DNA of 64,000 bases. It comes from a bacterium (GTDB lineage Bacteria > Bacillota > Clostridia > Oscillospirales > CAG-272). The stretch is taken from positions 1,170 to 65,169 of the forward strand of contig CAVIKO010000005.1 in assembly GCA_963643035.1 (NCBI GenBank), given 5' to 3'. Shown piece after piece: positions 1 through 34,137 of the stretch (within the stretch, counting starts at the first letter, position 1; the number at the start of each line of letters is the position of its first letter). The position numbers and the translations under genes are program-made. The notes under the pieces were generated by a model. That model saw nothing but the letters and a program-made list of their open reading frames with translations. It had not been told where the DNA came from and ran no database searches.

Positions 1-427
1 ATCTTGCTTTTTCTGCAACGCGGCACACACCATCGACCAGTTCTGGCAGCATATCGTCGAATCCTGCGCCATGGAGCGGAGTTGTGGCATTCAGACTGCA
101 AGCGATGGTATGGTGAAAGAATGGAGAGCCCATCTCTGCGGCAAACTCTACCTGCCGGCGCAGATCGTCCACAGCGGCGGGATTCTTATAAATATTCGTA
201 CCGACGGAATAACAAGCCATGCGCATACCGCTATCCGCGAGAATCTTACGCAATGTATGTGCTTCCTTGAGATCCCGAACGGTGTATATCTGACCGCCTG
301 TACCCTCCAGAGGTTCCACGGCAGAGAATCCGCAATGAGCAGCGTATTCCACCGTTTTCTCGATCCCGATGCGGCGGCACATATCGGTGAACCCGGCGTA
401 AAAGGCAAATTCCATTGTATTTTGCAT
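1..427 (-). CDS. sugar phosphate isomerase/epimerase-like TIM-barrel protein (5' part; gene continues past left edge)
   Basis: Absent from the ORF track because there is no stop inside the window. Manual minus-strand translation from the ATG at 427-425 gives MQNTMEFAFYAGFTDMCRRIGIEKTVEYAAHCGFSAVEPLEG... and stays open to the edge. Family assigned by eye only. Confidence 0.5.
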   Translation of the reverse strand, partial: MQNTMEFAFYAGFTDMCRRIGIEKTVEYAAHCGFSAVEPLEGTGGQIYTVRDLKEAHTLRKILADSGMRMACYSVGTNIYKNPAAVDDLRRQVEFAAEMGSPFFHHTIACSLNATTPLHGAGFDDMLPELVDGVCRVAEKAR

Positions 428-533: not shown

Positions 534-1595
534 TTAGCCGGTGATACCGGAACGTTCGATACCTTCCACAATGTACCGCTGACCGAAGAGATAGAGAACG
601 ATCAGAGGAGCGATGATCAGGATACCGCAGGTGTTACGGATCGCGGCGGTATAGAGTGCCTGACCGGCATAGTTGGTATCCAGAGATTTCGGAACCTTGA
701 TGATGTCGGGCAGAAGCAGATCGCCGGATGTTGTGTAGAACAGCTCGGTATAGAAATTGTCCGTCCACTGCCAGCAGAACGAGAACATGAATACCGTGAC
801 CATCATGGTGACGGACAGCGGGAGAATAATCCGAACGAAAGTGGAGAATACGCCGGAACCATCGAGGTACGCGGATTCTTCCAGCTCATCCGGAATGCCG
901 CGGAAGAACTGACGGAGGAGGAAGATGTACAGACCGTTCTTATACGCAAGACCTGTGATCGACAGGATGTACAGCGGGAAGTTTGTATTGATCATATTGA
1001 TGCTTGTGACATCAAGAACCTTGATGGCGTCGATTACGCCACCGCCGAGGAAGTTGATCAGACCGAACGAATCCCCGAGCTTGAAGATGTCGAAGTACCG
1101 GAATTCCATGAACAGGGAGAGCTGCAGTGTGGTGTGCGGTACGACCATCGTGAAGATGACCAGTAAGAACAGCAGGCTGTTGCCCTTGAATTTGAACTTC
1201 GCAAAGCCGTAACCGATGACGCAGCAGACGAAAGTCTGGAGAACGCCGCAGGTCAGGGACAGAATGAAGGTGTTCAGGAGAGCCGTTAAATACTTATTGT
1301 CCACGATGATGGCACGATAGGTTTCGAGGGTAGGATGGCGCGGCAGGAGTCGAACCGTCACATCCACGAAATCTTCCGGGCTCATGAAAGAGGACGAGAG
1401 CTTCGTATAGAACGGGAACAGGATTACGTAAGAGATACCGAGAAGGAGGAGGAACCGGAAGAGGTACCACACTACTCTCTTAATGGTATACAGGTTGATG
1501 AATTTTGCGCGCATTCTTTCCCAGAAAGGGGTACGTTCAAAATCCGCGCGGATCTTATTTTTGGTTTCCTTGGTGATCTTAGCAGTGCTATTCAT
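534..1595 (-). CDS. carbohydrate ABC transporter permease (MalG/AraQ-like)
   Basis: 353-aa polytopic ORF. EAA-loop signature EESAYLDGSGVFSTFVRIILP. ATG preceded by GAAAGGAGG. Confidence 0.9.
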   Translation of the reverse strand: MNSTAKITKETKNKIRADFERTPFWERMRAKFINLYTIKRVVWYLFRFLLLLGISYVILFPFYTKLSSSFMSPEDFVDVTVRLLPRHPTLETYRAIIVDNKYLTALLNTFILSLTCGVLQTFVCCVIGYGFAKFKFKGNSLLFLLVIFTMVVPHTTLQLSLFMEFRYFDIFKLGDSFGLINFLGGGVIDAIKVLDVTSINMINTNFPLYILSITGLAYKNGLYIFLLRQFFRGIPDELEESAYLDGSGVFSTFVRIILPLSVTMMVTVFMFSFCWQWTDNFYTELFYTTSGDLLLPDIIKVPKSLDTNYAGQALYTAAIRNTCGILIIAPLIVLYLFGQRYIVEGIERSGITG

Positions 1596-1613
1596 TCTAT
1601 GTACCTCCTTTCA

Positions 1614-2609
1614 TTAGTCTCTTCTCTGGTAGAAGATGAATGCGCTCAGAATACCGGCAACCGCCGCAATGATGAGGATAACGATGAGGAAGTACATCCA
1701 CGACATGGCAGAGGACAGAACGTTACCGTTTGCCTGCTCATATACAGTGGAGATATACGCCATAACCTTGTTATCCGACGATGTAAACGCGTCGATAATG
1801 GTGTAGACGGTGTTTACGAGGATCATCGGGGATACCATCGGCAGGGTGATCTTCCAGAAGGTTTCCCAACCGGACGCGCCGTCGATGGAGCAGGATTCGT
1901 AGATAGCCGGAGAAATGGACTGCAAGCCGGAGAGGAAGATCAGCATCTGTACACCGCAGCGGTTTACAATATTGAAGATATTGTTTACCATCTGTACGAC
2001 ATACTCAACGATCTCGGTACCAATCATCATACCGCGGAAAAGACTTTCCACGTCCATGACGGATACAATTTCGGTAGCCTGGCTTTCATCGCCGGAACCG
2101 TCATCGATACCGCTGGAGGAAGACATATAGTCGTTCATGGTGTTGCCGGCATCGATATCCGCAATCAGACCGGTGGTCAGGATAACGGGGATGAAGAAGA
2201 TGGCACGGAACGCTGCACGGCCGGCGATCTTCTGGTTCAGGATGATCGCAACGAACAGGGAGAAGAGGACGATCGACGGGATGTCGAGGACGAGCTGCTT
2301 CAGACCTGCCACGAGGGTGGTTACAAACGAGGTATCGACAAGAATGGCATCGCTGTAGTTCTTCCAGCCGACCCATTTCAGTTCGTAACCGCCTCCCACG
2401 AGAATTTTGATCTCGTGGAAGGAGTACTTAATGGAGTCAAATACAACGGGGAGATAGATGAGGATAAATCCAATGAGAAAGGGCAGAATGAAGAGCCAGC
2501 CTGCTCTCGCCTTACGGACATCCAGGGATGCGCCTTTTTTTCTTTTTTTACCGGGAGCATTGTCAATCTGAATCTTCTGCTTCTTCGGTGCTTTTGCATC
2601 TAAGTTCAT
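1614..2609 (-). CDS. sugar ABC transporter permease (MalF-like)
   Basis: 331-aa polytopic ORF. EAA loop YESCSIDGASGWETFWKITLP. SD GAAAGGGGAG. 18-nt gap to the next gene. Confidence 0.9.
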   Translation of the reverse strand: MNLDAKAPKKQKIQIDNAPGKKRKKGASLDVRKARAGWLFILPFLIGFILIYLPVVFDSIKYSFHEIKILVGGGYELKWVGWKNYSDAILVDTSFVTTLVAGLKQLVLDIPSIVLFSLFVAIILNQKIAGRAAFRAIFFIPVILTTGLIADIDAGNTMNDYMSSSSGIDDGSGDESQATEIVSVMDVESLFRGMMIGTEIVEYVVQMVNNIFNIVNRCGVQMLIFLSGLQSISPAIYESCSIDGASGWETFWKITLPMVSPMILVNTVYTIIDAFTSSDNKVMAYISTVYEQANGNVLSSAMSWMYFLIVILIIAAVAGILSAFIFYQRRD

Positions 2610-2626
2610 TCGTGCACTCCCCTTTC

Positions 2627-5600
2627 TTAGTCAATTCGGATGAAGTTAAGCGGTTCAACCTCGTAGGTCTTGCCGTCTACTTCAGTGGTTACACGGAAGG
2701 AATTGTAGTTGAGGATGAATTTTACGCCGTTTTCGTAGGTCACGAGAACGAGGGTACCGCTGGTAAGCGCGTACTTTTCAGGAACCTCAGCTTCTTCTTC
2801 TTCAGCGACGATCACTTCGCCGAACTCGTTCAGACCGCCGTTGTCGGTAGTCTCTTCATCGTCACCCTTTTCGGTTTCTGCTTCTGCAGCGGCATCTGCT
2901 TCATCGGTTGTGCCGTACTGCTCTGCAAGACGAGCGGCAAGTCTCTCGGCCTTTTCTGCCTTTTCCGCTGCGAGAATTTCCTCTTCTGCGAGAGCTTCCT
3001 CTGCTGCGGCTGCGGCTGCCTCATCGGCTTCCAGTTCGTCATCATCGGGAATCCGTTCGCCGTCGATGAATTCGTGGTCAACGATGTAGGAGGTCTGGAG
3101 ATCGTTGGTCGCGTCATTGAGCTTGTTGTAATATTCCACTACGTCTTCCTTCCAGATTTCGTAGTTGACGGAATAATACTTGCTGTTGGTCATGGATTCC
3201 TTCAGGCGGTTCGTGTTCTGGTAGGACAGCGTGTAGTACAGGGTCGCACCGTTTTCGATGGAACGCAGAATCATTTCATCGACATCGCCTTCCATGTTGA
3301 TGGCGGTACCGGTGAAGATCTTGGAGCCATGGAGAACCATGCCCATGAACGGTACGCATTCGCTTGCCTTTACAAAACGGCTGGAATCGAGAGATACCTC
3401 AACGATGGTATCCGCGTAAGGCAGTGCATACGCGTTTCCGCCGGAGATCATGACGCTCTCATAGTCGTTATCGAGCTGCTGTAAGAATGCCGTGGTGTAT
3501 TCCTTGTTGTCCTCGCGATGGTACGGCTCATCTTCGTCAAAGTCGGAGTTGAGGTCGCTGCCAAGCGTGCCAACGGAAATGTTCGCGTTGCCGTAGGAGA
3601 GGTATTCCGGACCGAACTTCTTATAGAAGCGTTCGTAGGAAACCGGGGATACGCAGAGCGCGAAGGTTCTGTCGAAGGTCTGGGTCGCGGGGTCGTATGC
3701 TCTTCTTCTGGTATAACGGTCGTCGATGGTCTTGATTGCGTCTCTCTTGAGGGAGAAGCCGTCAAACATATCACGGAAGTGGTTATACGCGAAGTCGAAG
3801 TCGGGGTAAACTTTGAAACCGGTCTGGTTTGCATAGGAAACGAGGTCAGAGAATCCATCCGCACCGCCAACGACCTTGTTCCACTTCAGCTTGGCAGGAT
3901 ACGTGTAGTAATCCATGTTGCCGTTGTAGTAACCGGTGAGACGGAAGTTGATGGAACCGGAGACACCCATCTCGGAAAGTTCAGCCTGCATGGTCTTGAT
4001 GTCCTCGAAGGTGGTCAGCGGGGTATCCACTTCTACCGGGAAGGACAGGACGCGTTCCAGAGTCTCGGTGGTACCAAACGTCTCAATGAAGAGCGGCAGG
4101 TTTTCATCGGCGGTTTCCATCTTGGTGATGTAGCCGTTTTCGGTGAAGTAATCGCGGCAGGCGGTCGCCATACCTACATAATCCGCCGCATAGTATTCCT
4201 TGACGCCCTTTTCGGCAGCGACATTTTCGTCGGTCAGGAAGATATACTCAATGCGATAACGTCCTGTGTACTTCCGGTCGGAGGTAACAGTCCAGGAAGC
4301 GGAACCGGATACGGAGATGGAGTCTGCCAGATTGTATTCATCGGAAGGACGAGGTGTGAACTGTGCGTATACGGTGTTGTACGGATGGAGCGTACCGCCG
4401 TGCGCCGTCATCAGCGTGGCAAGCGAATCGCCCTCGGTAATGATAGCGAGATAACCGTTGGAATAGGTCACAGGATCGGACGGAATGCCATTCTTATCCT
4501 CCAACTTTTTCGTGGTGGTTGCGGTATCCGTAGTGGAGGTATCTGCTGCTGCGCTATCGTCTGTCGCGGCTGCCTTGGACTCGAACCTTTCGGGAGCAAG
4601 CTCACCGTAGTTGACCATATTGCCCCATACGGGCCAGCGCATTACCTGAGAGTTGGTACCGCGGATTTCATGATACGCGAAGTCGTCGCCGTACATAATA
4701 CCGGAAATGTTGTAGGTCTGTCCCTTCACATCCTCATAGCGGACGAGTGCGCCCGTACCATCGGGGATGAGAGTGTAACCGGTGTAGGTGTTAGAACCGG
4801 CGTCGAAATACGGGAGGTAAATCAAGGTGTCGAACTGGTATGCGGATTCATCGAATTCGATACTGTTCGCCGGGCAGCTAACGGAAATGCCGTTTTCGGT
4901 GATGCTGTATTCGAGTGCGATACGGAAACGCGGCGGAGCGGCATCTGCGCCCTCATAGCCTGTTTCGCTGTGGTCTGCGTCGAGCTCTTCATAGGTGTAG
5001 GTCGGGCAGTACTGCTTGATGATTTCCTCAAGCTCACGAAGCTCTCTGGCTTTGATTTCCGGGTCGCACACATACACTGCCATTTCCAGCGTAATCGGGA
5101 ATTTGGACTGCATCTCGATGATACCGCGCTCTGTCAGAGTCGGGTCGGACGGGTCCTTCTTGGTATAGAAGGAGACGAGCTTTTCACGAAGCCAGTCATT
5201 TTCGATCTGGGAAAGGATGAGTTCTTCAAAACGTTCCACACGAATCATACGGGGAACGAGACGGATGGTCTGCTGTTCACCAAGTGTGTATTCCACACGC
5301 ATACCACCCTTGATGTTCTTACGGGTGATCTGCCCGCGAAGAGCAGCTTCAGTGTATGAATACATTTTCTTGGACACGTCGTTATCTTTATAGTTGATAA
5401 TGACCTGGGAGAGCAGTTCTTCCTTTACCGCAGAGGATGCGGTAGTTTGGGAAACGTCAATTGGGTTGGAGAAGTGTACCTGACCGGAAGCGGTATCCAC
5501 AATGGCAACCTCGCCTGTGAATTCCTCAAACCACATCTGGTAACCCTTTTCCTCCTTGACAAGGATCATATCGGCGAGCTTCTGCTCAGGATTGGCGTAG

Positions 5601-5734
5601 ACTTCGGTCTTGTAGTCGATCAGCGGATTGCCATCTTCATCGACCTTGTCTTCCCACGCGGCGCCGGTCGGAACCGTCATCGCGCCGGCGAGCATAACCA
5701 GAGTTAAGAATGCCGAAAGAAATCTTTTCATCAT
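2627..5734 (-). CDS. large secreted protein of unknown function (possibly glycan-active; from memory resembles DUF5696-type proteins)
   Basis: 1035-aa ORF with an SPase-I-type signal peptide (MMKRFLSAFLTLVMLAGAMTVPTGAAW). SD AGGAGAA. Acidic Ala/Glu-rich tract near the C-terminus. No catalytic motif that I can name. Confidence 0.8.
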   Translation of the reverse strand: MMKRFLSAFLTLVMLAGAMTVPTGAAWEDKVDEDGNPLIDYKTEVYANPEQKLADMILVKEEKGYQMWFEEFTGEVAIVDTASGQVHFSNPIDVSQTTASSAVKEELLSQVIINYKDNDVSKKMYSYTEAALRGQITRKNIKGGMRVEYTLGEQQTIRLVPRMIRVERFEELILSQIENDWLREKLVSFYTKKDPSDPTLTERGIIEMQSKFPITLEMAVYVCDPEIKARELRELEEIIKQYCPTYTYEELDADHSETGYEGADAAPPRFRIALEYSITENGISVSCPANSIEFDESAYQFDTLIYLPYFDAGSNTYTGYTLIPDGTGALVRYEDVKGQTYNISGIMYGDDFAYHEIRGTNSQVMRWPVWGNMVNYGELAPERFESKAAATDDSAAADTSTTDTATTTKKLEDKNGIPSDPVTYSNGYLAIITEGDSLATLMTAHGGTLHPYNTVYAQFTPRPSDEYNLADSISVSGSASWTVTSDRKYTGRYRIEYIFLTDENVAAEKGVKEYYAADYVGMATACRDYFTENGYITKMETADENLPLFIETFGTTETLERVLSFPVEVDTPLTTFEDIKTMQAELSEMGVSGSINFRLTGYYNGNMDYYTYPAKLKWNKVVGGADGFSDLVSYANQTGFKVYPDFDFAYNHFRDMFDGFSLKRDAIKTIDDRYTRRRAYDPATQTFDRTFALCVSPVSYERFYKKFGPEYLSYGNANISVGTLGSDLNSDFDEDEPYHREDNKEYTTAFLQQLDNDYESVMISGGNAYALPYADTIVEVSLDSSRFVKASECVPFMGMVLHGSKIFTGTAINMEGDVDEMILRSIENGATLYYTLSYQNTNRLKESMTNSKYYSVNYEIWKEDVVEYYNKLNDATNDLQTSYIVDHEFIDGERIPDDDELEADEAAAAAAEEALAEEEILAAEKAEKAERLAARLAEQYGTTDEADAAAEAETEKGDDEETTDNGGLNEFGEVIVAEEEEAEVPEKYALTSGTLVLVTYENGVKFILNYNSFRVTTEVDGKTYEVEPLNFIRID

Positions 5735-5764
5735 AATATCTTTTCTCCTATCTCTCGTTATGGC

Positions 5765-7897
5765 TTACAACCGGAATGCGATTTCTTCCACGATCTGCGT
5801 GATGAACATTACGATCTTCGCCATCAGGGAGGTGAAGAGGATCCCAATGAACATGATGAACGCCATACCAACGATGGTAGCGAGGCAGGTCAGAAGATTC
5901 TTACCCACGGAGTAGTCGTGTGTGACCATCATACCGAGAACGAGCAGGATGCCGAGCCAGAGATATGCGAAGGAGCTAAGCAGCGTCAGCAGACCGGATT
6001 CGTTGGCAGCGAGTACGTGAGACAACAGCGTGGACGGGAAAATCAGCAGGATCAGAGGCGTTAAGCAGTAGCAGGAGGCGATGAAGATGTCACTCATGCT
6101 GCCTTCACCTTCAAACAGAGTGGTAAGACACCAGTTCGCGATGACCCACAGGAGCAGCGGTGCGACAACTGCGGTCACTGCGCCGAAGACGTTAGAATAG
6201 GATGTATACGGATTGAAGATGTAGCCTTGACCGATGGAGTTGTAGAAGTAAACGAGGATGGTCGTGATCAGGATGACCATCGCGGAGCGCACGGAGCCGC
6301 GCTTTTCGTGTTTCAAATCCCAGAATCCGTCGAACGGATGGAAAATCACGTGGAAGGCATATAGAAGCTCTTCTTTGAGGCTCTTTCTGCCGACCTTGAG
6401 TGCAGCGCGTGTGTTAATCTTTGCGGCGTATCCGAAGAATTTGCCGATGGCTATGAATACCACAACGAGTATGACCGGGATGGTCCAGAAATACTTGGAA
6501 GCCCATTCCTTACGGATTTCCTTCCATGCATCGGAGTAGTTATCCGTTTCATATGCGGCCTTGTAGTATTCCATCGCTTCCTCGTATTTGCCCTGACGGT
6601 ACAGAGCCTTACCGATCTGGATGTATGCGGCATCGAAGTTGTTGTTCCGCTTCAGCACCTCTGTCCAGTCATCGATGGTCATGTCATATTTCCGTTCGTT
6701 GTCGTGCTGAATAGCCTGCAGGAGGAGGTCACCATACTGGGTACGACGGTATACGACGATGTTGTCATTGGTCTTGTCCAGAAGCAGAATCTTGGAACCC
6801 TGGTATGCAATGGCTTCAACGGAGCCGATGTTACCGGTCTGGATACCCAAGTCGCCGAAGATGAAGAGCAGGTTGCCGTTGTCATCGTAGGTAAAGACTT
6901 TGGAACGCTTTTCATCGATAATGGACCATGTGCCTTCCGGTCCGACCGCACAGTCGATAACCTTGGATGCACCAACGATGGTGTCAGTGGACAGGGTGGA
7001 GAATCCAACTTCACCGGACGGCGGATAGAAGCCATTACGCTTCATAACGTCGGAACCGGAGGCGTTGAGTTTCTTAACAGGTGCATAGTCGGAAGATGTA
7101 CTCTTGCTGAGGATCGCGTTCTGCTGTTGCGCCTCGTCAATGGAGGAGGTGGTCACGTAGATGAAGTTGTTTTCATCGATCGTGATGTTGTTGAACTCTG
7201 TAGAGACGTACTGCTCACTCTGGGAACGCTGTTCATCCGTCTGGATCTTACGCCAGATAATCTCCAGTGCGGAGATGGTAACCTTCTGTGCGCCGATGAA
7301 GCCGTAGAAGTCCGCGTTGTCGTTGATAACGATGATACCCTGATAGGTAGTAGACGATACAACGAAGAGACGACCGTACTGGTCTACCGCGCAGGCAACG
7401 GGCTTATAGATGGAGCCTTCCTCAAAAAGGTTGGATTCCGGCTTTTTGATGATCTTTACGTAGTTGCCTTCCGTATCGAATTTAATGATACGGTTGTTGT
7501 CGGTGTCACAGACGTAGATATATTCTTCGTTTACGAACACACCGGAGGGATTGTTGAAAGAGTCCGGGACACCGTGTTCATTCGTGAACTTATCTATGTC
7601 GAAGAGGTGGTTGTAGTACCGGTCACATACGATGACACGGTTGTTGGCAGCATCCACAAGGTACATTTTTTCATCCGGGCCGATGAAGAGATCTCTCGGG
7701 TCGTCGAATGCGACTTCCAGCCCCATGGAGGAGGAAGTGATCACCGTATCCGGAACGTAAGCCGCAGGAGAAACCAGCACTTCGCCATCGGAAGAATAGG
7801 TGTAGGTCGCGTAAGGCGTAGAAGCGGAGAGAGCGGTCGGGAGAACTGTGATTGCCGTCAGAACGGAAAGGAGTATGTTTTTGAAAATTTTCTTCAT
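5765..7897 (-). CDS. secreted NHL-repeat beta-propeller / TPR / C-terminal Yip1-like polytopic membrane protein
   Basis: 710 aa with a signal peptide. Repeated blades of the type YLVDAANNRVIVCD and YVCDTDNNRIIKFD. TPR-like helix pair (GKALYRQGKYEEAMEYYKAAYE). Then about 6 TM helices resembling a Yip1 domain. SD TAAGGAGG. Confidence 0.8.
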   Translation of the reverse strand: MKKIFKNILLSVLTAITVLPTALSASTPYATYTYSSDGEVLVSPAAYVPDTVITSSSMGLEVAFDDPRDLFIGPDEKMYLVDAANNRVIVCDRYYNHLFDIDKFTNEHGVPDSFNNPSGVFVNEEYIYVCDTDNNRIIKFDTEGNYVKIIKKPESNLFEEGSIYKPVACAVDQYGRLFVVSSTTYQGIIVINDNADFYGFIGAQKVTISALEIIWRKIQTDEQRSQSEQYVSTEFNNITIDENNFIYVTTSSIDEAQQQNAILSKSTSSDYAPVKKLNASGSDVMKRNGFYPPSGEVGFSTLSTDTIVGASKVIDCAVGPEGTWSIIDEKRSKVFTYDDNGNLLFIFGDLGIQTGNIGSVEAIAYQGSKILLLDKTNDNIVVYRRTQYGDLLLQAIQHDNERKYDMTIDDWTEVLKRNNNFDAAYIQIGKALYRQGKYEEAMEYYKAAYETDNYSDAWKEIRKEWASKYFWTIPVILVVVFIAIGKFFGYAAKINTRAALKVGRKSLKEELLYAFHVIFHPFDGFWDLKHEKRGSVRSAMVILITTILVYFYNSIGQGYIFNPYTSYSNVFGAVTAVVAPLLLWVIANWCLTTLFEGEGSMSDIFIASCYCLTPLILLIFPSTLLSHVLAANESGLLTLLSSFAYLWLGILLVLGMMVTHDYSVGKNLLTCLATIVGMAFIMFIGILFTSLMAKIVMFITQIVEEIAFRL

Positions 7898-7907
7898 AAA
7901 GTCCTCC

Positions 7908-8780
7908 TTAGTCCTTCATACCGCTGGAACCCATCGTTTCGATGATGTTGGACTGCGATACGACGAAAACGAGGATCGGCACTGCCATCATAACGACCGT
8001 GGATGCGGCGGATGCACCGGTACGGGCGATACCGCCTGCGGTGATCTGGCTGATTGCGTAGTTTAAGGTTTTAAGCTGTTCGGAGTAAATGAGGTTCGTC
8101 TGCCCGGAGTTCCACAGTCCCTGGAAAGAGTAGATGATCAGGGTCAGCCAGGCGGGCTTAACCATCGGCATTGCGATCGACCAGAAAGTACGCAGTTCGG
8201 ATGCGCCGTCGAGACGGGCAGATTCCAGAACCTCGGTTGTAACGTTGGTCTCCATGAACTGCTTCATGAGGTACAGACCAAGAGTAGAAGCAAATGCCGG
8301 AATGATGATCGCAAGGTAGGTGTCGATCCAGCCGAGCCAAGACAGGGTGATGAAGTTAACAAGCCCTGTAACGGTGGCGGAGAACATAAGAGACTTCTGA
8401 ATGAGGGAGAAGAAGAACTTGTTGCCCGGGAAGTCGATTTTCGCGAGTGCATATGCGGAGAGGGAGGATAACACAAGGTTACCGAAGGTACCACCGACAG
8501 AGATCAGCACGGTGTTGAAGATGTAGCGCGAGAACGGAACCCAGGAGTCGCTCATCAGGTTGAAGAGGGACTTGAAGTTTTCCATGGTCGGGTGTACAAC
8601 ATAGAATCGCGGCGGGAAGTAGAAGATTTCATCCATCGGCTTGAGGGACTGGATGATGGTATAATACATCGGGAGGAACATGAAGAGTCCGAAGATGGTC
8701 AGGACAACTGTAATACCAACGTCGCCGCCAACCGAACGGTTGAGGACAACTTCATGTTTTCTGGTACGTAATTTTCTCAT
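7908..8780 (-). CDS. carbohydrate ABC transporter permease (MalG-like), second pair
   Basis: 290 aa, polytopic. EAA loop LESARLDGASELRTFWSIAMP. Start lies 1 nt after the upstream stop. Confidence 0.9.
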   Translation of the reverse strand: MRKLRTRKHEVVLNRSVGGDVGITVVLTIFGLFMFLPMYYTIIQSLKPMDEIFYFPPRFYVVHPTMENFKSLFNLMSDSWVPFSRYIFNTVLISVGGTFGNLVLSSLSAYALAKIDFPGNKFFFSLIQKSLMFSATVTGLVNFITLSWLGWIDTYLAIIIPAFASTLGLYLMKQFMETNVTTEVLESARLDGASELRTFWSIAMPMVKPAWLTLIIYSFQGLWNSGQTNLIYSEQLKTLNYAISQITAGGIARTGASAASTVVMMAVPILVFVVSQSNIIETMGSSGMKD

Positions 8781-8781
8781 G

Positions 8782-9726
8782 TCACTGTCCTACCTTTGCA
8801 ATGAGTTTCGTAATCAACACGTTACAGCCGATCATCATCAGGAACAGGATGAAGGAGATAGCGGACGCATAGCCGACCTCCCAACGGGTACCCTGATATT
8901 CGGTGAGGTGATGGTTTAAGGTGTACGCAACGTAGTCCACGGACGGGTTACCAGCGAGTGCGGTAACAACCGGACCGAAGCCGAACGCGCCGGTGATGGA
9001 AAGGATAGCACCGAACATCAGCTGCGGCTTCATGGAAGGCAGGGTGATGTACCAGAGCTCCTGCCAACGGTTCTTAACGCCGTCGATGGCACCGGCTTCA
9101 TAGAGAGACTTGTTGATGCCCTGCAGACCGGCGATGAAGGAAAGGAACGCGGTACCAAGGGACATCCACAGTGCAACGATGATACAGAGCGGCATAACGT
9201 AGTCGGCGTTCTGGAACCAGAGGATCGGGGTATCGATGAAGCCGAGCTTAATGAGGATCGCGTTCGCCCAACCGTAGGTATCGGAGGAGAACAGGGTTGC
9301 CCAGATCAGGTACACGTTACCGGAAATGGACGGTGCGTAGAAAATCAAGGTTACGATAGCGCGGATCTTCGGGGACAGCTCGTTGATGAACCATGCTACC
9401 ACAAACGAAAGGATGTAGGACACAGGGCCGGTGACGGCTGCAAAGATCAGCGTGTTTTTCAGAGCGGTGATGAACAACTCGTCATCGAGGAACAGGGTGA
9501 TGTAGTTGTCCATGAAGATGAACTTCGGCCACTCCAGCATATTGAAGGAGGTGAAGCTCAGCACAAGGGAGAGAAAGACGGGGATGATGGTGAATAAGAA
9601 GAACAGAATCATAAACGGTGCGATCATGAAGTATGCCGTTTTGTTCTTCCGAATGAGAAACCATGTCCATTCCGCTTTTGTCATCTCATGGCGGGTCTTG
9701 ACTTGCTTTTCGGTATTCTTAGACAT
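8782..9726 (-). CDS. sugar ABC transporter permease (MalF-like), second pair
   Basis: 314 aa, polytopic. EAA loop YEAGAIDGVKNRWQELWYITLP. SD AAAGGAGAG. Confidence 0.9.
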   Translation of the reverse strand: MSKNTEKQVKTRHEMTKAEWTWFLIRKNKTAYFMIAPFMILFFLFTIIPVFLSLVLSFTSFNMLEWPKFIFMDNYITLFLDDELFITALKNTLIFAAVTGPVSYILSFVVAWFINELSPKIRAIVTLIFYAPSISGNVYLIWATLFSSDTYGWANAILIKLGFIDTPILWFQNADYVMPLCIIVALWMSLGTAFLSFIAGLQGINKSLYEAGAIDGVKNRWQELWYITLPSMKPQLMFGAILSITGAFGFGPVVTALAGNPSVDYVAYTLNHHLTEYQGTRWEVGYASAISFILFLMMIGCNVLITKLIAKVGQ

Positions 9727-9857
9727 ATACGCTCTCCTTTACGAAATTTCTTGCCGGATGCTATATATAATAATGTAGGTTTTTGTCCTCCGGCGGAGAA
9801 GTGCAGACGTTTCAGGATGGTACTGATGCAGCGCATCCCTTACATCTTTGCCGTGTA

Positions 9858-9882
9858 TCCGGGGAGTTTTCGCTCTCCCGGA
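9858..9882 (-). other. stem-loop in the SBP-permease intergenic spacer (possible mRNA stabiliser or partial terminator)
   Basis: TCCGGGGAG-N6-CTCTCCCGGA imperfect inverted repeat, 26 nt downstream of the SBP stop. No U-run follows. Confidence 0.3.
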
Positions 9883-9907
9883 CACATCGGGCGGGGATCA
9901 TACAAAA

Positions 9908-12900
9908 TCAGTCGAGGTAGGATTCGAGCGCGTCAGCAGCGTCGTTCAGGTAGCGAACGATCTGGACGGTCGTCTCGTCGGAACCGGTGAGAGAGGAAGC
10001 GGCGGCACGGATTTCATCGATGTCCTTGTTATCGCAGGCGGTGATGACTGCATCGTACTGACCGCTGTTCTCGCCGATGAGCTCCAGCACCTGGCTGATT
10101 CTCTTGTCCGCGAGCGTAGAACCGATGGGCAGGATTTCCAGATCAAACTCGGTTCTCTTCCGGTTGATTTCCTTATTGATGGTGTTGATATACTGCAGAA
10201 GGGAATCTACCGGGTCTGCATGGTTATTGTACGCGTCTAAGAACGCGAAGTTGGTATAACGGGCGAGGATGTAGTTGCCGGGATACTGCGGAACGGCTAC
10301 GAGGCTATCCATCTGCTTCTTCAGCTGATTGTATTCGCGGGACGTCCACGGCAGCTCTTCCAGAGCCTCCTTATTGGCGGTGGTATTCTTAGCCGCATCG
10401 CCGAGGATGGCAACAAGCTCGTTGGAGTAGTCCACCTGGAACTGGGTATCGGTGTACCACTTCATGAATTCCCAAGCGGAGGCGGGATCATCGGTACCGG
10501 ACATCATAACGAGCGCGCCGGTAGAGGACATGGTAACGTTGTTGACGTTGCCCTCTTCGTCCACGGTGCCGGGTACGGGACCGAATTCCCACAGACCTGC
10601 AATTTCCGTACCGAAGATAACAACGTTATTGTATTCGCTGTACGGACGGATCGCGATCGGCATTTCACCGGTCTTGAAACGGTTAGCGAAGTCGTAGGTG
10701 TACGGCAGAGAGTACTGCGTGAACATATCACACATGATCTCGAATGCCTCAAGGGACTTGTTGGAGTCGAGGTTGATGCGCATACCATCGTCCGCCCAGA
10801 GATCCTCATCCATCTGATACATGAAGGTCTGGTAGTCGGCGGTCAGACCGATTTCCATGTTGTTGAACTGGAGAACCGGCACCATGGCGAGGAGTTCATC
10901 CCATGTCTTCGGCACATCGAGACCGAGGTCAGCGAGAATGTCGGTGCGGTAGAACATCATGTTCCAGGACTGCGTGGAAGGCAAACCATATGTTTTGCCG
11001 TAAAGGGAAATCGGAATCATAGCAGCTTCGGTAAATCTTGCTTCCACTTCATGGAAGTCGGAGAAGATCTCCCGCATCTGCGCATTGTACGCCTTGGTTT
11101 CTTCATCCGCATCCGCTTCATCTTCGTATGCTTCCGGGTTGACGGCAAGCACCGCATGACGGATAGCGTACTGAATCGGGTCCGCGCCGGCACCGTCAAG
11201 GGCTACGTCAGGGCCAACGCCTGCGAGCACGGACGGCAGCAGCGTATCTGCGGAGACGAGCTTGAGGGCTACGTCTACATTAGCTTCGGGAACGAACTGG
11301 TTATCGATCAGGTTCCGAATGATCTGCGCCTGGTCACGACCGGTCACAACCCATACCTCGATGCTCTTTTCCTTGGCGGATTCCTCCGTGGAGGAGCCGA
11401 TGGAGTTGTAGTCGGTGTAGAACGAGCCGAAGAACTGCTTCATTTCATGTGCAAAAGCTTGGAAGAAGTTGCCTTCCGCTTTCGGCAAATCTGCGGATGC
11501 GGGCTGGATCAGGATATAGTCGATTTCCAGCGGCTGCTTGGTAACGGTATTGAGCCACGTACCGAGCGTACCGATGTTGGATTTCAGGTTAGAGAGGTTC
11601 GACGCAATTTCATCCTCATCTGTACCCATTCTCTCCAAGAGACGGGCGATGGTCGCCAGCGTTGCGGAGTTTTCACTCTTTACGTCTGCGGTGGACTCGA
11701 TGTAGGTGATGACGTCGTTCAGATTGATGGACTGGACTACAAGATCCTCCACAACGTCCGGCATTACACGTCCGAAGCCGTAGTCACGGTAGGAGTCCGG
11801 AGATGCGCCGGTCAGCTTCAGGATCTCGAGGTAGTCATCGTTGATGGAGTCCATGATCTCGTTTACCTGACGAACGGTGTCGCCCATTTCGCCGAGCGTT
11901 ACCTCCAGGCGCAGGGTGTGTTCGCCGGGTTCAAGATAGAACTGGAAGGTATCCGCGCCGTTGTTGGCGGCAGCTACCTGCCATTCGGTGTCGTAATTGA
12001 ATTTTGCGTAGTTGGCTTCTTCAAACGGGACCTCGCCGTCAATGAGGATCTTCCGGGAAACATACATACCGGACAGCTCATTCTGACGGAAGCGGAACAC
12101 GATCTCGTAAAGACCGGCGGATTCCACGTTGAAGTTGTATTCCACCCACTGGCCGACCTTCTGCCACTTTTCGCCGCCGATCGTATTCAGCATGATCTTT
12201 GTGTGATGCTGCGGCTCGGTGATGGCGGATTTCCGGTCGTAGATCGGATAAACGGTGTAGTCGGAGGTAGCGGACGGGGTTTCCGCATCGATGTGGATCG
12301 TGGAAGCGGTCGCCTCGGACTTACCGGCGATATAATCCTCGTAAGCGAGCTTATCCTCATAGGGGTGAATGGTGATCGTCTGGATCGCCATCGGCTCACG
12401 GACGGCCTCCAGAGTGATCGTGTTCTCACCGGCTTCGAGGTAGAATTCAAACGGATTTGCATAGTAGCCGTTGGAGTCGATGAAATCGTAAGTCGACCAG
12501 ACATGCTCGACATGAGAACTGGGACGCAGTTCGTTGCCGTTGGAGTCGATCTCAAATCTGCCGTCTACATAATCGTTGACCCAGGTTTTCTTCATGAGCA
12601 GGTAACGCGCCTCGGAGAAGGGAACCTTATCGTTTATGTAGAGCATCCGCTCGATGGAGTTTGTCTTTTCGGAAGTAGACGTGTAGTCGATGCTGATCGA
12701 GTAAAGACCAGTTTCCGGAATGTTGACCTTCCACGTGACCTTGCCATCGTCCTGCATCACAAGGCTCTGTCCGCTCTTACCGTTGTAGTTGGATTCAACC
12801 TTTACGGTAGCGGTGGTGGATTCAGCAACATAATCCGCCGCGTTAATCGTAACGGACTTCGTCCCCCGCTTCGCATCCGCGTGCTGCTCCTTATACGCAG

Positions 12901-13075
12901 CATAAGAGATGGAAGACAGGGATTCGCTGATTTCCTGCAGTGTCGTCTTTGTAGTGGTGCTGCTCTCGGCGGCGGTATCGTCTTCGGCAGCCATAACAGC
13001 CGTCTGTGCGGTACCGAGAGCCATCAGAAGCGACAGAGCAAGACAAGTCAGCTTTTTGCTTGTGGGTTTTCTCAT
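9908..13075 (-). CDS. giant extracellular solute-binding protein with two N-terminal CBM-like modules
   Basis: The ORF track gives 9908-13288. I prefer the internal ATG at 13075 (MRKPTSKKLTCLALSLLMALGTAQTAVMAAEDD), which has SD CAGGAGGAAG. Two internally duplicated beta-sandwich-like modules (FYLEAGENTITLEAV vs FYLEPGEHTLRLEVT). The C-terminal half is typical family-1 SBP. Confidence 0.85.
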   Translation of the reverse strand: MRKPTSKKLTCLALSLLMALGTAQTAVMAAEDDTAAESSTTTKTTLQEISESLSSISYAAYKEQHADAKRGTKSVTINAADYVAESTTATVKVESNYNGKSGQSLVMQDDGKVTWKVNIPETGLYSISIDYTSTSEKTNSIERMLYINDKVPFSEARYLLMKKTWVNDYVDGRFEIDSNGNELRPSSHVEHVWSTYDFIDSNGYYANPFEFYLEAGENTITLEAVREPMAIQTITIHPYEDKLAYEDYIAGKSEATASTIHIDAETPSATSDYTVYPIYDRKSAITEPQHHTKIMLNTIGGEKWQKVGQWVEYNFNVESAGLYEIVFRFRQNELSGMYVSRKILIDGEVPFEEANYAKFNYDTEWQVAAANNGADTFQFYLEPGEHTLRLEVTLGEMGDTVRQVNEIMDSINDDYLEILKLTGASPDSYRDYGFGRVMPDVVEDLVVQSINLNDVITYIESTADVKSENSATLATIARLLERMGTDEDEIASNLSNLKSNIGTLGTWLNTVTKQPLEIDYILIQPASADLPKAEGNFFQAFAHEMKQFFGSFYTDYNSIGSSTEESAKEKSIEVWVVTGRDQAQIIRNLIDNQFVPEANVDVALKLVSADTLLPSVLAGVGPDVALDGAGADPIQYAIRHAVLAVNPEAYEDEADADEETKAYNAQMREIFSDFHEVEARFTEAAMIPISLYGKTYGLPSTQSWNMMFYRTDILADLGLDVPKTWDELLAMVPVLQFNNMEIGLTADYQTFMYQMDEDLWADDGMRINLDSNKSLEAFEIMCDMFTQYSLPYTYDFANRFKTGEMPIAIRPYSEYNNVVIFGTEIAGLWEFGPVPGTVDEEGNVNNVTMSSTGALVMMSGTDDPASAWEFMKWYTDTQFQVDYSNELVAILGDAAKNTTANKEALEELPWTSREYNQLKKQMDSLVAVPQYPGNYILARYTNFAFLDAYNNHADPVDSLLQYINTINKEINRKRTEFDLEILPIGSTLADKRISQVLELIGENSGQYDAVITACDNKDIDEIRAAASSLTGSDETTVQIVRYLNDAADALESYLD

Positions 13076-13755
13076 ATAACCTTCCTCCTGCTTGTTTTTG
13101 GGACTTTGGCAATTCACTCCGTACCGGATATTCCGGCAGTCTGGACTGTGTATACGCCGCTGTCCGCCCTCACTTGGGGAATTTGTTTCGTGCCTCCGTG
13201 CATGATTTTGCCGCCATCCACCTCCTAAAGGCAGACACCTGACGCCGCGATCCGCTGAGACATCGCACCATCGACAATCGTTTCGCATCCGCCGGACGAA
13301 TCATTCCGCCATTCGCCAGACGAACACTCGTCGCACGATCTTTCGTCGCACGAATTTTCCGCTTCTCGATCGTACCGTAAAGGTACCCGGTGCGTAGCAT
13401 AAGATACGGAGGCGCAAACAAATTGCTCCGGACAGCTTTTTTTCTTCTGAAACGAACACATTCGCCGTATTCCATGCGGTAAATCCGCGTTTCGTCCGGT
13501 TTCCTTTCGCCAAACCTCCATCGGTAAACGGTCCCGATCGATTTTAGCGCGCAAGATCCCCGACTTCCCGCCGACTCACAGCCTTCAGACGAAAAAAAGG
13601 CATCCGAGCAGCATTGCGTCCCAAGTACCGGGAGAGCCACATGCCATAGGGTCCGCCTCGCAGATCCGCACAGTGACCGTTTTGCGGTCGTTCCGTGACG
13701 GGATTCTGCGGTTCGAAGGCCGCAAACTGGTCTCCCCCCGTATTTATATGCCATA

Positions 13756-13784
13756 ATCATAGCATAAACGCACAAAAAAGTCAA
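13756..13784 (-). promoter_or_regulatory. sigma-70-type promoter of the ABC operon
   Basis: Minus strand TTGACT-17 nt-TATGAT. Implies a leader of about 670 nt before the SBP start. Confidence 0.45.
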
Positions 13785-14058
13785 GTGTTATCCAGTCGAC
13801 GCGTGTGAAATTTGGTATGCAGCCTGTTTTCCCCACAGCGTTTTTTCAGGTTTGTGAAAAGATTCGGTCTGAAAACCGTTTTTCTGCCACATCCGCGTCA
13901 TATTTCCGCCTCTCTCCGAAGGTATATTATTTTTACCTTTATTGCACTTTTTGAGTTTGTTTTTGTTATTTTTTTGCTGTTTTTTCGTTTTTCAAATCCT
14001 CTCAAATGCTTGCAATTCACATTTCGTCATTTTTATTTACCTGATGCGGAATGCGTCT

Positions 14059-17690: not shown

Positions 17691-18653
17691 TCACTTGCCA
17701 AGTACTCCTGCGCCGATGATACCCGCGTCGTTGCCGAGTTTGGCAATGAGGATCTGTGTGCGGGGGGTACCCTCTCTCGTGTAGGTTTCGCCCCATACCT
17801 TTTCAAGCAGCGGCTTCATGAGGTAGTCGCCCTCGTTGCATACGCCGCCGCCGATGGACAGCACGTTCGGCTGGAAGATATTGATCATATTGACAATACC
17901 GCAGGAGAGATAGCTGATGTACTCGTCCACAACCTCTGCGCCGACCTCGTCGCCCTGCTTCATGGCGTTGAACGCGGTACGTGCGCTGACCTTGGACAGA
18001 TCACCGCCGATCATGTCTTCCATGGCGGTCTTTTTGCCTGCCGCTCTTGCCGCCACGATGTGATCCTTCGTGATGTTGACGAGACCTGTAGCGGAGCTGT
18101 ACGCTTCCCAGCAGCCCTTTCTGCCGCAGGAGCACTGTCTGCCGTCCTTCTGGATGACAACGTGACCAAGCTCTGCGCCCGCGAAATTGAAACCGGTATA
18201 AACCTTGCCGTCGATGATGATACCGCCGCCGACACCGGTGCCGAGGGTGATCATCACGGAGATGGGCGCACCTGCAGCCACACCCGCAATCGCCTCTGCC
18301 TTTGCTGCGGCGTTCGCGTCGTTTTCGATATAGACCTTCTTACCGTCGAGCTGTGCGGAAAGCCGCTCTGCCAGAGGGTACTGTAAGAACGGGATGTTAT
18401 TCGCATATTCGACCACGCCGGTCACATTGTTCGCGGTGCCGGGGGTAGCCACGCCGACGGATTCGATGTCGTCAAGGGACAGTCCCTCCTCCGCGATGAG
18501 CTTTTTGCACAGGGCTGCCATATCCTCAATGATGGGATCCGCGCCGCGTTCCGGCTTGGTGGGTACGCTGCCCTTTCTGACGATTTCGTACTTGTCGTTG
18601 ACGATGCCGATGGCGATATTGGTACCGCCGAGATCCACGCCGATTGTATACAT
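17691..18653 (-). CDS. glcK: ROK-family glucokinase
   Basis: MYTIGVDLGGTN start (ATG at 18653, SD AGGCAGGA; the ORF track extends to 18683). ROK zinc motif CSCGRKGCWEAY. Confidence 0.9.
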   Translation of the reverse strand: MYTIGVDLGGTNIAIGIVNDKYEIVRKGSVPTKPERGADPIIEDMAALCKKLIAEEGLSLDDIESVGVATPGTANNVTGVVEYANNIPFLQYPLAERLSAQLDGKKVYIENDANAAAKAEAIAGVAAGAPISVMITLGTGVGGGIIIDGKVYTGFNFAGAELGHVVIQKDGRQCSCGRKGCWEAYSSATGLVNITKDHIVAARAAGKKTAMEDMIGGDLSKVSARTAFNAMKQGDEVGAEVVDEYISYLSCGIVNMINIFQPNVLSIGGGVCNEGDYLMKPLLEKVWGETYTREGTPRTQILIAKLGNDAGIIGAGVLGK

Positions 18654-18868
18654 AGTAAATCCTGCCTTTCTGAATTTGCGCATGGTACCGATCCGAGCGA
18701 ACGATTCACCACGCGCGGTTGTCCATACGCTATCATTATAATAAAAAACGCGTCTTTTGTCAACGGTTTTTCGGTATATTTCCGCATATTCTGCAGCGGC
18801 ACACGGAAAATTCGATCTGGCAAATCGTCGAAAAGTTGCATCGCTGTGGTATGCTGTTCACAAATATG

Positions 18869-21872: not shown

Positions 21873-22034
21873 AGGTTTTCTACTCCTTTGTATATCGGCA
21901 TACACCGCTCACGTCGGTGTGATTTTCTATAGTATACCATATTTCATGCCGATATGCAAGGCTGTTTTTGTGCGTTTTGCAATAATTACATTTGTAACCA
22001 AATCTCGTTGCGTGAAAATCAGGCTCACGCCGCG

Positions 22035-23366: not shown

Positions 23367-23472
23367 ATGTTAAAGATGCGGGGAAAACTTTTCCCTAAAA
23401 AAAGTCTTCCCCGCGCTCCTTTCCAAAACTTTGTACATGGAGACAAGCCAACTTACACGCTTGTTGTCTCTC

Positions 23473-23651
23473 AATAGCAGTATTCCCCACTACCTAATAA
23501 ACGAATGGCAGCAATCTCTCCCTGTAGTGTGCGGATCCGTTCTAAGAGCCGCTCGCGAACGATCTTCTAAGGGAACGGAGCACTCAAATTGGTGAGCAAT
23601 CGGACTTGCACAAACGAAATCCATCACCAATCCCCTTATAAAAGTTTTTGC
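23473..23651. repeat. conserved intergenic element, copy 1 (candidate structured RNA or dnaB leader)
   Basis: The reverse complement aligns block by block with 63381-63518. Shared blocks: GCAAAA(A)CTTTTAT, GGGGAT..GATTGG, AAGTCC, GCTCACCA, ACAGG(G)AGAGAT, TTCGT.TATT.GGTAGT.G, GCTATT. Confidence 0.6.
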
Positions 23652-23694
23652 CCGGCTTTTTCAAAAAGCCGTGTTCCCCCGTCTCTCCGTTTCC

Positions 23695-24147
23695 TCAGCC
23701 GTTCACAACAACGATGTTGATCTTGCCGGAAATTTCCGGGTAGAGTTTTACGTCGAGGGTGTAACTGCCGTAGTTCTTGATCGCCTCGTCGAGGACGATC
23801 TTGCGCTTGTCAATCTGGATGTTGTGCTGCGCCGCCAATGCCTCCGCAATATCCTTCGTCGTAACGGAACCGTAGATACGGTTGTCACCCTGCGCACCCG
23901 CCTGCACCTTAATCTTCACCACAAGCGTTTGCAGCTTTTCCGCCAACGCACGCGCATCTGCCTTTTCCAGTTCTATCTTACGCAGCCGCGCCGCTTCCTT
24001 GTTCTTGATGTCGTTCAGAATCGCCGCATCCGCTACCACCGCCAATTTGCGCGGAAGCAGGAAGTTGCGCGCATATCCGTCCGACACGTCAATCAGTTCG
24101 TCCTTCTTGCCCTGTCCTTTTACATCCTGTAATAATACTACCTTCAT
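23695..24147 (-). CDS. rplI: 50S ribosomal protein L9
   Basis: MKVVLLQDVKGQGKKDELIDVSDGYARNFLLPRKLA. 150 aa. SD AAAAGGAGAA. Confidence 0.95.
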   Translation of the reverse strand: MKVVLLQDVKGQGKKDELIDVSDGYARNFLLPRKLAVVADAAILNDIKNKEAARLRKIELEKADARALAEKLQTLVVKIKVQAGAQGDNRIYGSVTTKDIAEALAAQHNIQIDKRKIVLDEAIKNYGSYTLDVKLYPEISGKINIVVVNG

Positions 24148-24261
24148 TTTCGTTTTCTCCTTTTTGTTTCCTCATTTTATATATCTCACCGTACAGCGCA
24201 AGCCGCCGGGAATTGTTGTTTTTGGATTCGCTCAGGCATACGGGTCTGGCTGCTTCTTCTA

Positions 24262-34056: not shown

Positions 34057-34085
34057 TTGACATGGCAGCGTTTTTATGATACAAT
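34057..34085 (+). promoter_or_regulatory. promoter of SBP paralog 2
   Basis: TTGACA-17 nt-TACAAT with TG extension. Confidence 0.55.
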
Positions 34086-34137
34086 TCCGATCAGAAGCAA
34101 CGCATTCTTAAAATATTATAGAGAAAGGCATTTTGTT

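Follow-up and report, generated by a model that had tools for sequence, protein, structure and literature searches.

What could a bacterium gain from an operon that encodes two complete permease pairs of the ATP-binding cassette (ABC) type, a single giant substrate-binding protein (SBP), no ATPase, and two large non-transporter proteins placed between the permease pairs? This question is raised by a seven-gene cassette at positions 534 to 13,075 of a 64,000-nucleotide stretch of contig CAVIKO010000005.1, hereafter referred to as the window, which derives from a bacterium of the Oscillospirales lineage CAG-272. The original prediction, made from the letters of the DNA, offered two views of this locus: a capture and processing machine that feeds two importers, or a transporter scaffold used for something other than simple import. 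With slightly more confidence than doubt, we favor the reading that the cassette is a self-contained seven-protein machine for the capture, trimming, and import of carbohydrates, in which the substrate, the activity of the DUF5696 protein, and the role of the Yip1 protein are the parts that we infer.

A conserved seven-gene cassette

Read in the direction of transcription, the cassette encodes the giant SBP of 1055 amino acids (9908-13075; minus strand, as for all other members), the permeases P1 (8782-9726) and P2 (7908-8780), an NHL/TPR-Yip1 membrane protein of 710 amino acids (5765-7897), a DUF5696 protein of 1035 amino acids (2627-5734), and the permeases P3 (1614-2609) and P4 (534-1595). 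The open reading frames (ORFs) lie where the original prediction had placed seven minus-strand genes, and Pfam searches with each product upheld every domain assignment. From the SBP gene to P4, the intergenic gaps measure 181, 1, 10, 30, 17, and 18 nt, and all seven genes start with an ATG codon that is preceded by a GGAG-type Shine-Dalgarno site. The ORF of the SBP can be extended up to position 13288, and an AGGAGG Shine-Dalgarno site lies in front of the ATG codon at 13075. Judged by the tight gaps, the Shine-Dalgarno site in front of each gene, and a single conserved promoter, the seven genes are one operon. Its only long intergenic region, of 181 nt, separates the SBP gene from P1 (9727-9907, minus strand). 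Sequence similarity in this gap is limited to the nearest relatives (88-94% over approximately 82 nt), and the gap may act in the processing or stability of the mRNA and thereby set the ratio of SBP to permease.

Among genomes sampled at one per species, at least 386 encode a close relative of the DUF5696 protein, all of one subfamily; 80 loci were kept. Nearly all of them stem from uncultured gut or rumen Clostridia/Oscillospiraceae; one Bulleidia genome and one record labelled Methanocorpusculum complete the set. In the latter (L014; JAGARL010000319.1), a complete bacterial cassette is found on a contig deposited as Methanocorpusculum sp., which is probably a case of binning contamination of an archaeal metagenome-assembled genome (MAG). 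A search with the DUF5696 protein yielded hundreds of relatives, the first three of whose contexts contained the same seven genes amid unrelated flanks. A tblastn search of a plasmid collection revealed two carriers, the Butyrivibrio fibrisolvens plasmid pNP243 and a replicon of Paenibacillus cellulosilyticus, in which the DUF5696 protein is about 25% identical and the gene order is the same. When the Paenibacillus DUF5696 protein was used as the query, the family was found in many cultured species of Paenibacillus, Cohnella, and Neobacillus, and five more cassette contexts were added, those of Neobacillus kokaensis, Cohnella luojiensis, and three MAGs. All evidence from genomic context reported here is comparative.

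The order SBP-P1-P2-Yip1-DUF5696-P3-P4 on one strand is present in 73 of the 92 loci, and these are all of the complete ones; the remaining 19 are cut by contig ends, and the number of exceptions to the order is zero. It is kept even in distant loci where the DUF5696 proteins are only 20-27% identical, and for all seven proteins, orthology with distant taxa is one-to-one. The neighbourhood comparison that the original prediction proposed therefore finds the inserted Yip1 and DUF5696 genes together with the permease pairs in 73 of 73 complete loci, and its remark that such genes occur beside sugar-ABC permeases in Clostridia and Paenibacillus agrees with the loci inspected. The membrane parts are the most conserved, with mean p-distances of 0.26-0.31 for the permeases, 0.375 for the Yip1 protein, and 0.45-0.46 for the SBP and DUF5696 proteins.

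All four permeases match BPD_transp_1 above the Pfam cutoff. In comparisons with NCBIfam, P1 and P3 resemble UgpA/MalF, and P2 and P4 resemble UgpE/MalG, permease similarities that are generic only. EAA loops are present in P1 (EAGAIDGV; 9037-9099), P2 (ESARLDGA; 8166-8225), P3 (ESCSIDGA; 1839-1898), and P4 (ESAYLDGS; 819-878), so that two complete MalF/MalG-type pairs are indeed encoded, each permease with an EAA loop of the kind that docks an ATPase of the MalK/MsmX type. P3 possesses an extended loop before the EAA region, and P4 is consistently longer than P2. The notion of a duplicated translocon needs correction as far as a recent doubling is concerned; the two pairs are real, but they are only about 25% identical to each other. 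P1 and P3 share approximately 26% and P2 and P4 approximately 22% identity, while the orthologues of P1 in Paenibacillus and Butyrivibrio are 43-56% identical and those of P3 in distant taxa 34-40%. Since P1 and P3 are this dissimilar and each has deep orthologues of its own, a recent tandem duplication of a permease pair can be rejected, and by these comparisons, P1/P2 and P3/P4 are ancient paralogues, each with one-to-one orthologues in distant taxa.

No ORF in the 64-kb window combines a Walker A motif with LSGGQ, and a tblastn search of the window with a UgpC-type ATPase as the query gave no match, in line with the absence of an ABC ATPase noted originally. Among 85 related loci, only two have an ABC ATPase ORF within 10 kb, on the opposite strand in both. 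In Paenibacillus (L087) and Neobacillus (L088), a UgpC/MalK-type ATPase gene is located 13-37 nt upstream of the giant SBP gene. This arrangement in cis supports the view, already taken in the original prediction, that the missing ATPase is not odd and that the gene is merely unlinked in the genome from which the window derives.

A sigma-A-type promoter overlapped by a palindrome precedes the operon (13737-13789, minus strand; TTGACT, 17-nt spacer, TG-n-TATGAT). The promoter-like site at 13784-13756 is the best match of the region (10 of 12 positions, TG-extended), and matches to the promoter consensus across the region are no commoner than expected by chance. Conservation bears this site out: it lies within a 43-nt block (TTGACtTTTTTGTGCGyTTATGcTATkATwATGgCATATAAAT) that is kept well past the -35 and -10 hexamers. 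In each of 22 related loci, a single copy of the block, with at most 9 substitutions, precedes the SBP gene, although the proteins of these loci are only 55-75% identical. An imperfect palindrome, ATGCTATGATTATGGCAT, lies over the -10 region. Its half-sites co-vary (ATGC..GCAT versus ATGA..TCAT), and because they change together, the palindrome probably serves as the operator of a repressor. A second copy of this operator was not found in the window.

The promoter is followed by a 5' leader of approximately 670 nt (13076-13736, minus strand) with a predicted stem-loop at about 13693-13744; across loci, the leader varies in length between 240 and 700 nt. When diverged leaders were folded one by one, a 5'-proximal hairpin was predicted at the same place in 14 of 14, with differing stem sequences and lengths, as exemplified by CGGGA/TCCCG, CGGAGAGAA/TTCTCTCTG, and CATAGAG/CTCTATG. 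Apart from the window, this hairpin is found in L001, L014, L016-L018, L020, L022, L028, L031, L037, L040, L048, and L068. In loci of the L014 type, a second hairpin with a run of T residues behind it shares sequence with the 3' arm of the first, an arrangement that hints at attenuation. An Rfam scan of the whole window returned no family, so the long leader contains no known riboswitch.

The accessory proteins and the giant SBP

The protein encoded directly upstream of P3 matches the Pfam family DUF5696 (PF18952) with 441.4 bits against a cutoff of 25.6 (E-value 7e-132). Hydropathy analysis reveals one N-terminal hydrophobic segment without a lipobox, and the protein is secreted or anchored; in Bacilli, the N-terminal segments of both the SBP and the DUF5696 protein resemble uncleaved signal anchors. 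Pfam and hydropathy thus agree with the earlier description of a secreted NHL/TPR/Yip1 membrane protein and a 1035-amino-acid secreted protein encoded between the permease pairs. An AlphaFold2 model of the DUF5696 protein built from 27 homologues is of moderate confidence (pLDDT 62, pTM 0.64), and its predicted layout of an N-terminal beta-sandwich, a (beta/alpha)8 barrel, and a C-terminal beta domain corresponds to the fold of glycoside hydrolase (GH) family GH129. In a Foldseek search of the PDB, the model best matches the GH129-like 3,6-anhydro-D-galactosidase of Zobellia (8rzk/5opq; E-value 4e-19, TM-score 0.63-0.65 normalized by target), followed by the GH129 enzyme NagBb (E-value 2.5e-16) and then by GH101, GH36, and GH31 enzymes. 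Furthermore, a profile of 24 diverse DUF5696 members matches GH129 chains of the PDB in three collinear stretches with an E-value of 4e-8, while a narrower DUF5696 profile reaches an E-value of only 0.17. GH-family models of Pfam gave no match to the DUF5696 protein, even at an E-value of 10, and nothing was returned by NCBIfam.

Acidic residues kept family-wide are E275, D325, D351 (24 of 24 sequences), D731 (22 of 24), and E827. A catalytic Asp is common to both GH129-type enzymes, D435 of NagBb corresponding to D486 of the Zobellia enzyme (PMC5698469). The catalytic carboxylates of NagBb are D435 and E478, and the Zobellia enzyme shares the Asp only. D731 would match this Asp by its spacing from the aligned segment, not by alignment; the HMMER alignments of DUF5696 to GH129 end before the nucleophile strand. 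By its profile matches and its modelled structure, DUF5696 is a distant GH129-fold protein for which glycosidase activity is only predicted. With an identity of about 10%, it is probably not a member of GH129, but a separate or sister family within the same fold group. Some NCBI records name DUF5696 relatives "glycoside hydrolase". The family comprises 4144 clusters at 50% identity (E-value 0.001 or better), and many of its members carry long C-terminal extensions of up to about 2500 amino acids; such extensions are common in surface enzymes. In the window version, the barrel and the conserved C-terminal beta domain are set apart by a low-complexity acidic/alanine coiled-coil insertion (residues ~898-990). 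This insertion is shared by the close relatives in the alignment (27 sequences with 57-92% identity), and the DUF5696 proteins of Bacilli and Butyrivibrio are shorter by 200-280 amino acids.

The second protein encoded between the permease pairs carries a Yip1 domain at residues 515-684 (60.7 bits; cutoff 28.6), in which five hydrophobic helices at 538-686, as seen by hydropathy, correspond to the Yip1 bundle of five transmembrane (TM) segments. Ahead of it, the polypeptide consists of a signal peptide, an extracellular NHL propeller (~30-385), TPR-like helices (~387-470), and a TM helix (470-488); a cytoplasmic HPFDGFWDLKHEKRGS motif lies between this helix and the Yip1 domain. The NHL match reaches 24.3 bits over the whole protein (cutoff 20), and no single repeat passes on its own. 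Its extracellular half is modelled as a six-bladed NHL propeller that matches TRIM-NHL, Brat, and PknD sensor propellers with an E-value of 3e-13. Since the confidence of the whole AlphaFold2 model is low (pLDDT 58), only the propeller was used, in which residues 50-150 are predicted with high and residues 202-312 with low confidence. The NHL and Yip1 parts are fused in the window, in Paenibacillus, Neobacillus, and L091, and the NHL/TPR/TM and Yip1 parts are encoded by separate genes in Butyrivibrio (L086), Cohnella (L089), L090, and L092, with the split point in the cytoplasmic linker right before an invariant HPFDGFWD(L/M)K motif. Because they are fused in some lineages and split in others, the NHL and Yip1 parts can be regarded as functional partners.

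In the giant SBP, the SBP_bac_1 domain is found at residues 599-878 (67.3 bits; cutoff 26; E-value 3e-18). The protein has one N-terminal hydrophobic segment, a signal or an anchor, and lacks a lipobox. About 570 amino acids precede the CUT1-type SBP domain, which reaches beyond residue 878; they contain two weak CBM35-like beta-sandwich matches and a helical stretch. The CBM_35 match (28.1 bits) is barely over its cutoff of 28, with no single stretch passing alone, and matches to Golvesin_C and GH115_C in the same part are below their cutoffs. Sequence matches in the PDB are sugar SBPs and CBM35 modules. The size of this protein (977-1087 amino acids) and its layout are kept in all lineages.

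The original prediction noted a single SBP gene. While this is true of the operon, the window contains three further genes for SBP-like lipoproteins, at 20376-21905 (minus strand; likely ATG at 21872, lipobox IAGC), 34057-35634 (plus strand; likely start at 34138, lipobox LTAC, no significant Pfam match), and 38429-39904 (minus strand; lipobox LTGC, weak SBP_bac_1 match of 24.9 bits). They are paralogues of about 500 amino acids, approximately 30% identical to each other and very divergent from the Pfam SBP models, and no permease gene is found alongside any of them. One or two genes of this orphan family directly follow P4 in L011, L017, L018, L028, and L042, and the family is also found near the cassette in Butyrivibrio (L086, downstream) and Cohnella (L089, upstream), which amounts to seven loci; ordinary SBP genes flank the cassette in Neobacillus and L092 as well. 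Judged by this distribution, the orphan SBPs are plausible trans-encoded partners of one of the translocons.

Import of carbohydrates and rival explanations

In several lineages, the cassette is embedded among genes for sugar catabolism. Its flanks contain a histidine kinase/response regulator pair and a GH43 enzyme in Butyrivibrio (L086), LacI, GH26, GH113, and GH9 in Cohnella (L089), and LacI, GH35, and a GH30 protein in L090; the latter carries a lipoprotein-type signal and is thus not cytoplasmic. In Neobacillus (L088), GH2, GH38, GFO/IDH oxidoreductases, and an AP_endonuc_2 gene are found, with no regulator in the stretch read. The flanking GH26, GH113, GH9, GH35, GH2, and GH43 proteins lack a signal peptide and are therefore taken to be cytoplasmic; since these enzymes come from typically endo-acting families, their presence suggests that rather long oligosaccharides are imported. 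The flanking GH families vary by lineage, while the seven-gene core is fixed. For a scaffold used for something other than import, we found no positive evidence, and the GH, LacI, and two-component system neighbours elsewhere point to catabolic import. The alternative of capture and processing gains support from the GH129-like glycosidase fold of DUF5696.

We propose the following sequence of events. The giant SBP would bind a large glycan or oligosaccharide, possibly aided by its CBM35-like modules, and hand the ligand to P1P2. DUF5696 would cleave or trim the glycan at the cell surface, and its products might enter via P3P4, either directly or through ordinary lipoprotein SBPs such as those encoded by the orphan genes here and next to the cassette elsewhere. 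The NHL/TPR-Yip1 protein would anchor the extracellular partners and keep the two translocons together, in a manner similar to that of YknW with YknXYZ. Energy would be provided by a shared MsmX/MsmK/UgpC-type ATPase, whose gene presumably lies at another locus of this genome and, in Paenibacillus and Neobacillus, in cis. Transcription would start from the conserved promoter (13784-13756) and be controlled by a repressor that binds the overlapping palindrome.

Several observations weigh against this proposal. The CBM-like matches of the SBP are marginal, with CBM_35 near its cutoff and the others under it, the model of the Yip1 protein is of low confidence, and the equation of D731 with the GH129 nucleophile is one of spacing, with no identifiable acid/base residue. 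We found no paper that mentions DUF5696 or PF18952. Known GH129 and GH101 enzymes are of narrow specificity, and the flanking GHs imply substrates that depend on the lineage. The Oscillospiraceae loci lie among housekeeping genes without other carbohydrate-active enzymes (CAZymes), and the rate-covariation statistic discussed below still contains shared phylogeny and recombination of sub-modules.

A bolder version of the proposal, which we consider rather unlikely, holds that all seven proteins assemble into a single supercomplex, which would be to Gram-positive bacteria what the "utilisome" is to Bacteroidota. The Yip1 protein would bridge the two translocons and hold above them the SBP and DUF5696, the latter as a surface glycosidase of a new GH129-related family, and the products would be channelled into a dedicated second translocon, possibly without a classical SBP. 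If true, this would be the first function for bacterial NHL-Yip1 proteins and for DUF5696, and the first enzyme-coupled, dual-channel ABC importer.

A mirror-tree style test on 61 complete loci regressed the pairwise distances of a protein against the average over the remaining proteins, with 999 label permutations. The partial-Mantel residuals correlate within the group of SBP, P1, and P2 (r 0.48-0.62) and within that of DUF5696, P3, and P4 (r 0.27-0.54), and the correlation between the two groups is zero or negative. The residuals of the Yip1 protein correlate with those of SBP and P1 (0.23-0.24), of P3 and P4 (0.23-0.29), and of DUF5696 (0.41). These values fit a giant SBP serving P1P2, a DUF5696 protein that acts with P3P4, and a Yip1 protein that touches both; they are a hint only, because shared phylogeny and the exchange of sub-modules stay in the statistic.

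The separation of these two groups also suits another explanation, namely that two ordinary, independent CUT1 importers lie side by side, P1P2 with the giant SBP and P3P4 with lipoprotein SBPs, while DUF5696 and the NHL-Yip1 protein are co-regulated with them and not physically joined. No feature of a complete translocon is missing from either permease pair, and ordinary SBP genes adjoin P4 in several loci. However, none of the 92 loci contains one half of the cassette alone, even across classes of Bacillota, evolutionary distances over which independent neighbours are normally shuffled, and the Yip1 protein covaries with both blocks. We therefore regard two independent importers as improbable, although not far-fetched.

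The covariation of DUF5696, as the sole extracellular partner, with P3 and P4 would likewise be expected if it were a non-enzymatic glycan receptor with a degenerate glycosidase fold that takes the role of an SBP and presents the substrate to P3P4. P3P4 would then be an importer that needs no binding protein, or one that depends on an enzyme-like receptor. Where the wider family has a GW.NGG motif, the window version has TGYYNGN, and the fold stays constant while the flanking GH families vary widely. Yet the family-wide residues D325, D351, D731, and E827 are typical of active or metal sites, genes for SBP-like lipoproteins able to serve P3P4 exist, and we know of no type I ABC importer with a glycosidase-fold receptor, so that we judge this explanation to be very unlikely.

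Equally doubtful to us is the suggestion that the cassette recycles or remodels the cell's own exopolysaccharide or wall glycan, with DUF5696 as a hydrolase or transglycosylase and the importers salvaging fragments: the housekeeping surroundings without other CAZymes in Oscillospiraceae, the very strong conservation of the membrane parts, and that of the promoter/operator across genera would suit it, but the catabolic loci in Bacilli, Butyrivibrio, and L090, with their LacI or two-component regulators and cytoplasmic GH26, GH113, GH9, GH35, GH2, and GH43 enzymes, speak against it, as does the fact that genes for glycosyltransferases or polysaccharide synthesis are not adjacent in any locus inspected.

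The genomic neighbourhood in the Oscillospiraceae consists of housekeeping genes; the neighbours that recur are a NifS-like gene and, in 23 loci, a ROK gene. In the window, no regulatory gene is adjacent to the cassette. A ROK-family gene (17691-18683, minus strand; Pfam ROK, E-value 4e-60) is located 4.6 kb upstream of it; its product is 59% identical to that of the ROK gene found directly upstream of the cassette in 23 loci, which is divergently oriented in 19 of them. The ROK protein may be the regulator, or it may act on the imported product as a sugar kinase; its link to the cassette is only a hint. Genes for a DnaB helicase, a GdpP-type cyclic di-AMP phosphodiesterase, and a penicillin-binding protein transpeptidase reside at 22035-26250 and 28210-30267 (both minus strand), and because of this housekeeping neighbourhood, we place the cassette in the core chromosome and not in a mobile island. 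On its other side, a truncated AP_endonuc_2 gene (1-427, minus strand), encoding a xylose-isomerase-like TIM barrel, follows 106 nt after P4. The original prediction listed it along with the seven genes; we rejected it as part of the conserved unit because the gene downstream of P4 differs between loci. A gene of the same family recurs in Neobacillus (L088, 19978-20832), five genes downstream of the cassette.

Comparison with known systems

We found no description of the seven-gene system in the literature. It is not categorically new, because every part belongs to a known superfamily; what makes it worth experimental work is an invariant architecture with two translocons, a Yip1 protein associated with importers, and a probably new GH129-related family. 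The carriers are Bacillota of gut and soil. They include many uncultured Oscillospiraceae/Clostridia, which abound in the guts of humans and ruminants and of whose glycan uptake little is known, and the cultured strains Paenibacillus cellulosilyticus KACC 14175, Neobacillus kokaensis, Cohnella luojiensis, and Butyrivibrio fibrisolvens D1. The architecture offers a testable hypothesis for the uptake of large glycans by Gram-positive bacteria, and its study could lead to a new family of glycoside hydrolases and to the first importer function of bacterial Yip1 proteins.

Among known transporters, the CUT1 importers that share an often unlinked MsmX/MsmK/UgpC-type ATPase, such as the MsmX-dependent systems of Bacillus subtilis and the MsmK-dependent ones of Streptococcus, resemble the cassette in its family-1 SBP and in its MalF/UgpA- and MalG/UgpE-like permeases with EAA loops. 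Unlike these importers, the cassette combines two translocons in obligatory linkage, an SBP that measures about 1000 amino acids, with a 570-amino-acid N-terminal extension and without a lipobox, and invariant NHL/TPR-Yip1 and DUF5696 genes between the permease pairs. The use of several SBPs by one importer, including SBPs from orphan genes, is known from HisJ/LAO with HisQMP and from AliA/AliB/AmiA with AmiCDEF. The three permease-less genes for SBP-like lipoproteins in the window, whose family is cassette-adjacent elsewhere, would fit this pattern as predicted partners; their products are very divergent, and just one of them matches SBP_bac_1, and weakly.

The modelled DUF5696 protein has the three-domain fold of the GH129 enzymes, i.e., NagBb, the alpha-N-acetylgalactosaminidase of Bifidobacterium bifidum (5wzn), and the enzyme of Zobellia galactanivorans (5opq, 8rzk). 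In contrast to them, it is extracellular or membrane-anchored and always encoded within an ABC operon; at about 10% identity, a second catalytic residue is not identifiable. For the Yip1 protein, a precedent exists in YknW, which belongs to the Yip1 family and modulates the assembly of the YknXYZ ABC transporter in Bacillus subtilis/B. amyloliquefaciens (PMC4887032). As in the YknWXYZ system, the cassette encodes a Yip1-family membrane protein together with an ABC transporter; YknYZ is, however, a MacB-type exporter, whereas the cassette encodes type I importers. YknW consists of a Yip1 domain only; in the cassette protein, this domain is joined to an NHL propeller outside the cell, to TPR helices, and to one further TM helix.

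Finally, proteins for the binding of glycans, their processing at the surface, and their import are encoded together in Gram-positive polysaccharide utilization loci (gpPULs) and, as a functional analogue, in the Sus-like systems of Bacteroidota, as is predicted for the cassette. Its neighbours in Bacilli and Butyrivibrio include regulators and cytoplasmic GHs in the manner of gpPULs, and the combination of transporter, CAZyme, and regulator that defines them is present in L086, L089, and L090; the window contains the transporter and the GH-like DUF5696, with the ROK gene, a candidate regulator, 4.6 kb away. The cassette differs from gpPULs and Sus systems in that it has no SusC/D and, in Oscillospiraceae, no further CAZyme or regulator next to it, and in that its seven-gene core stays fixed whatever GHs flank it.

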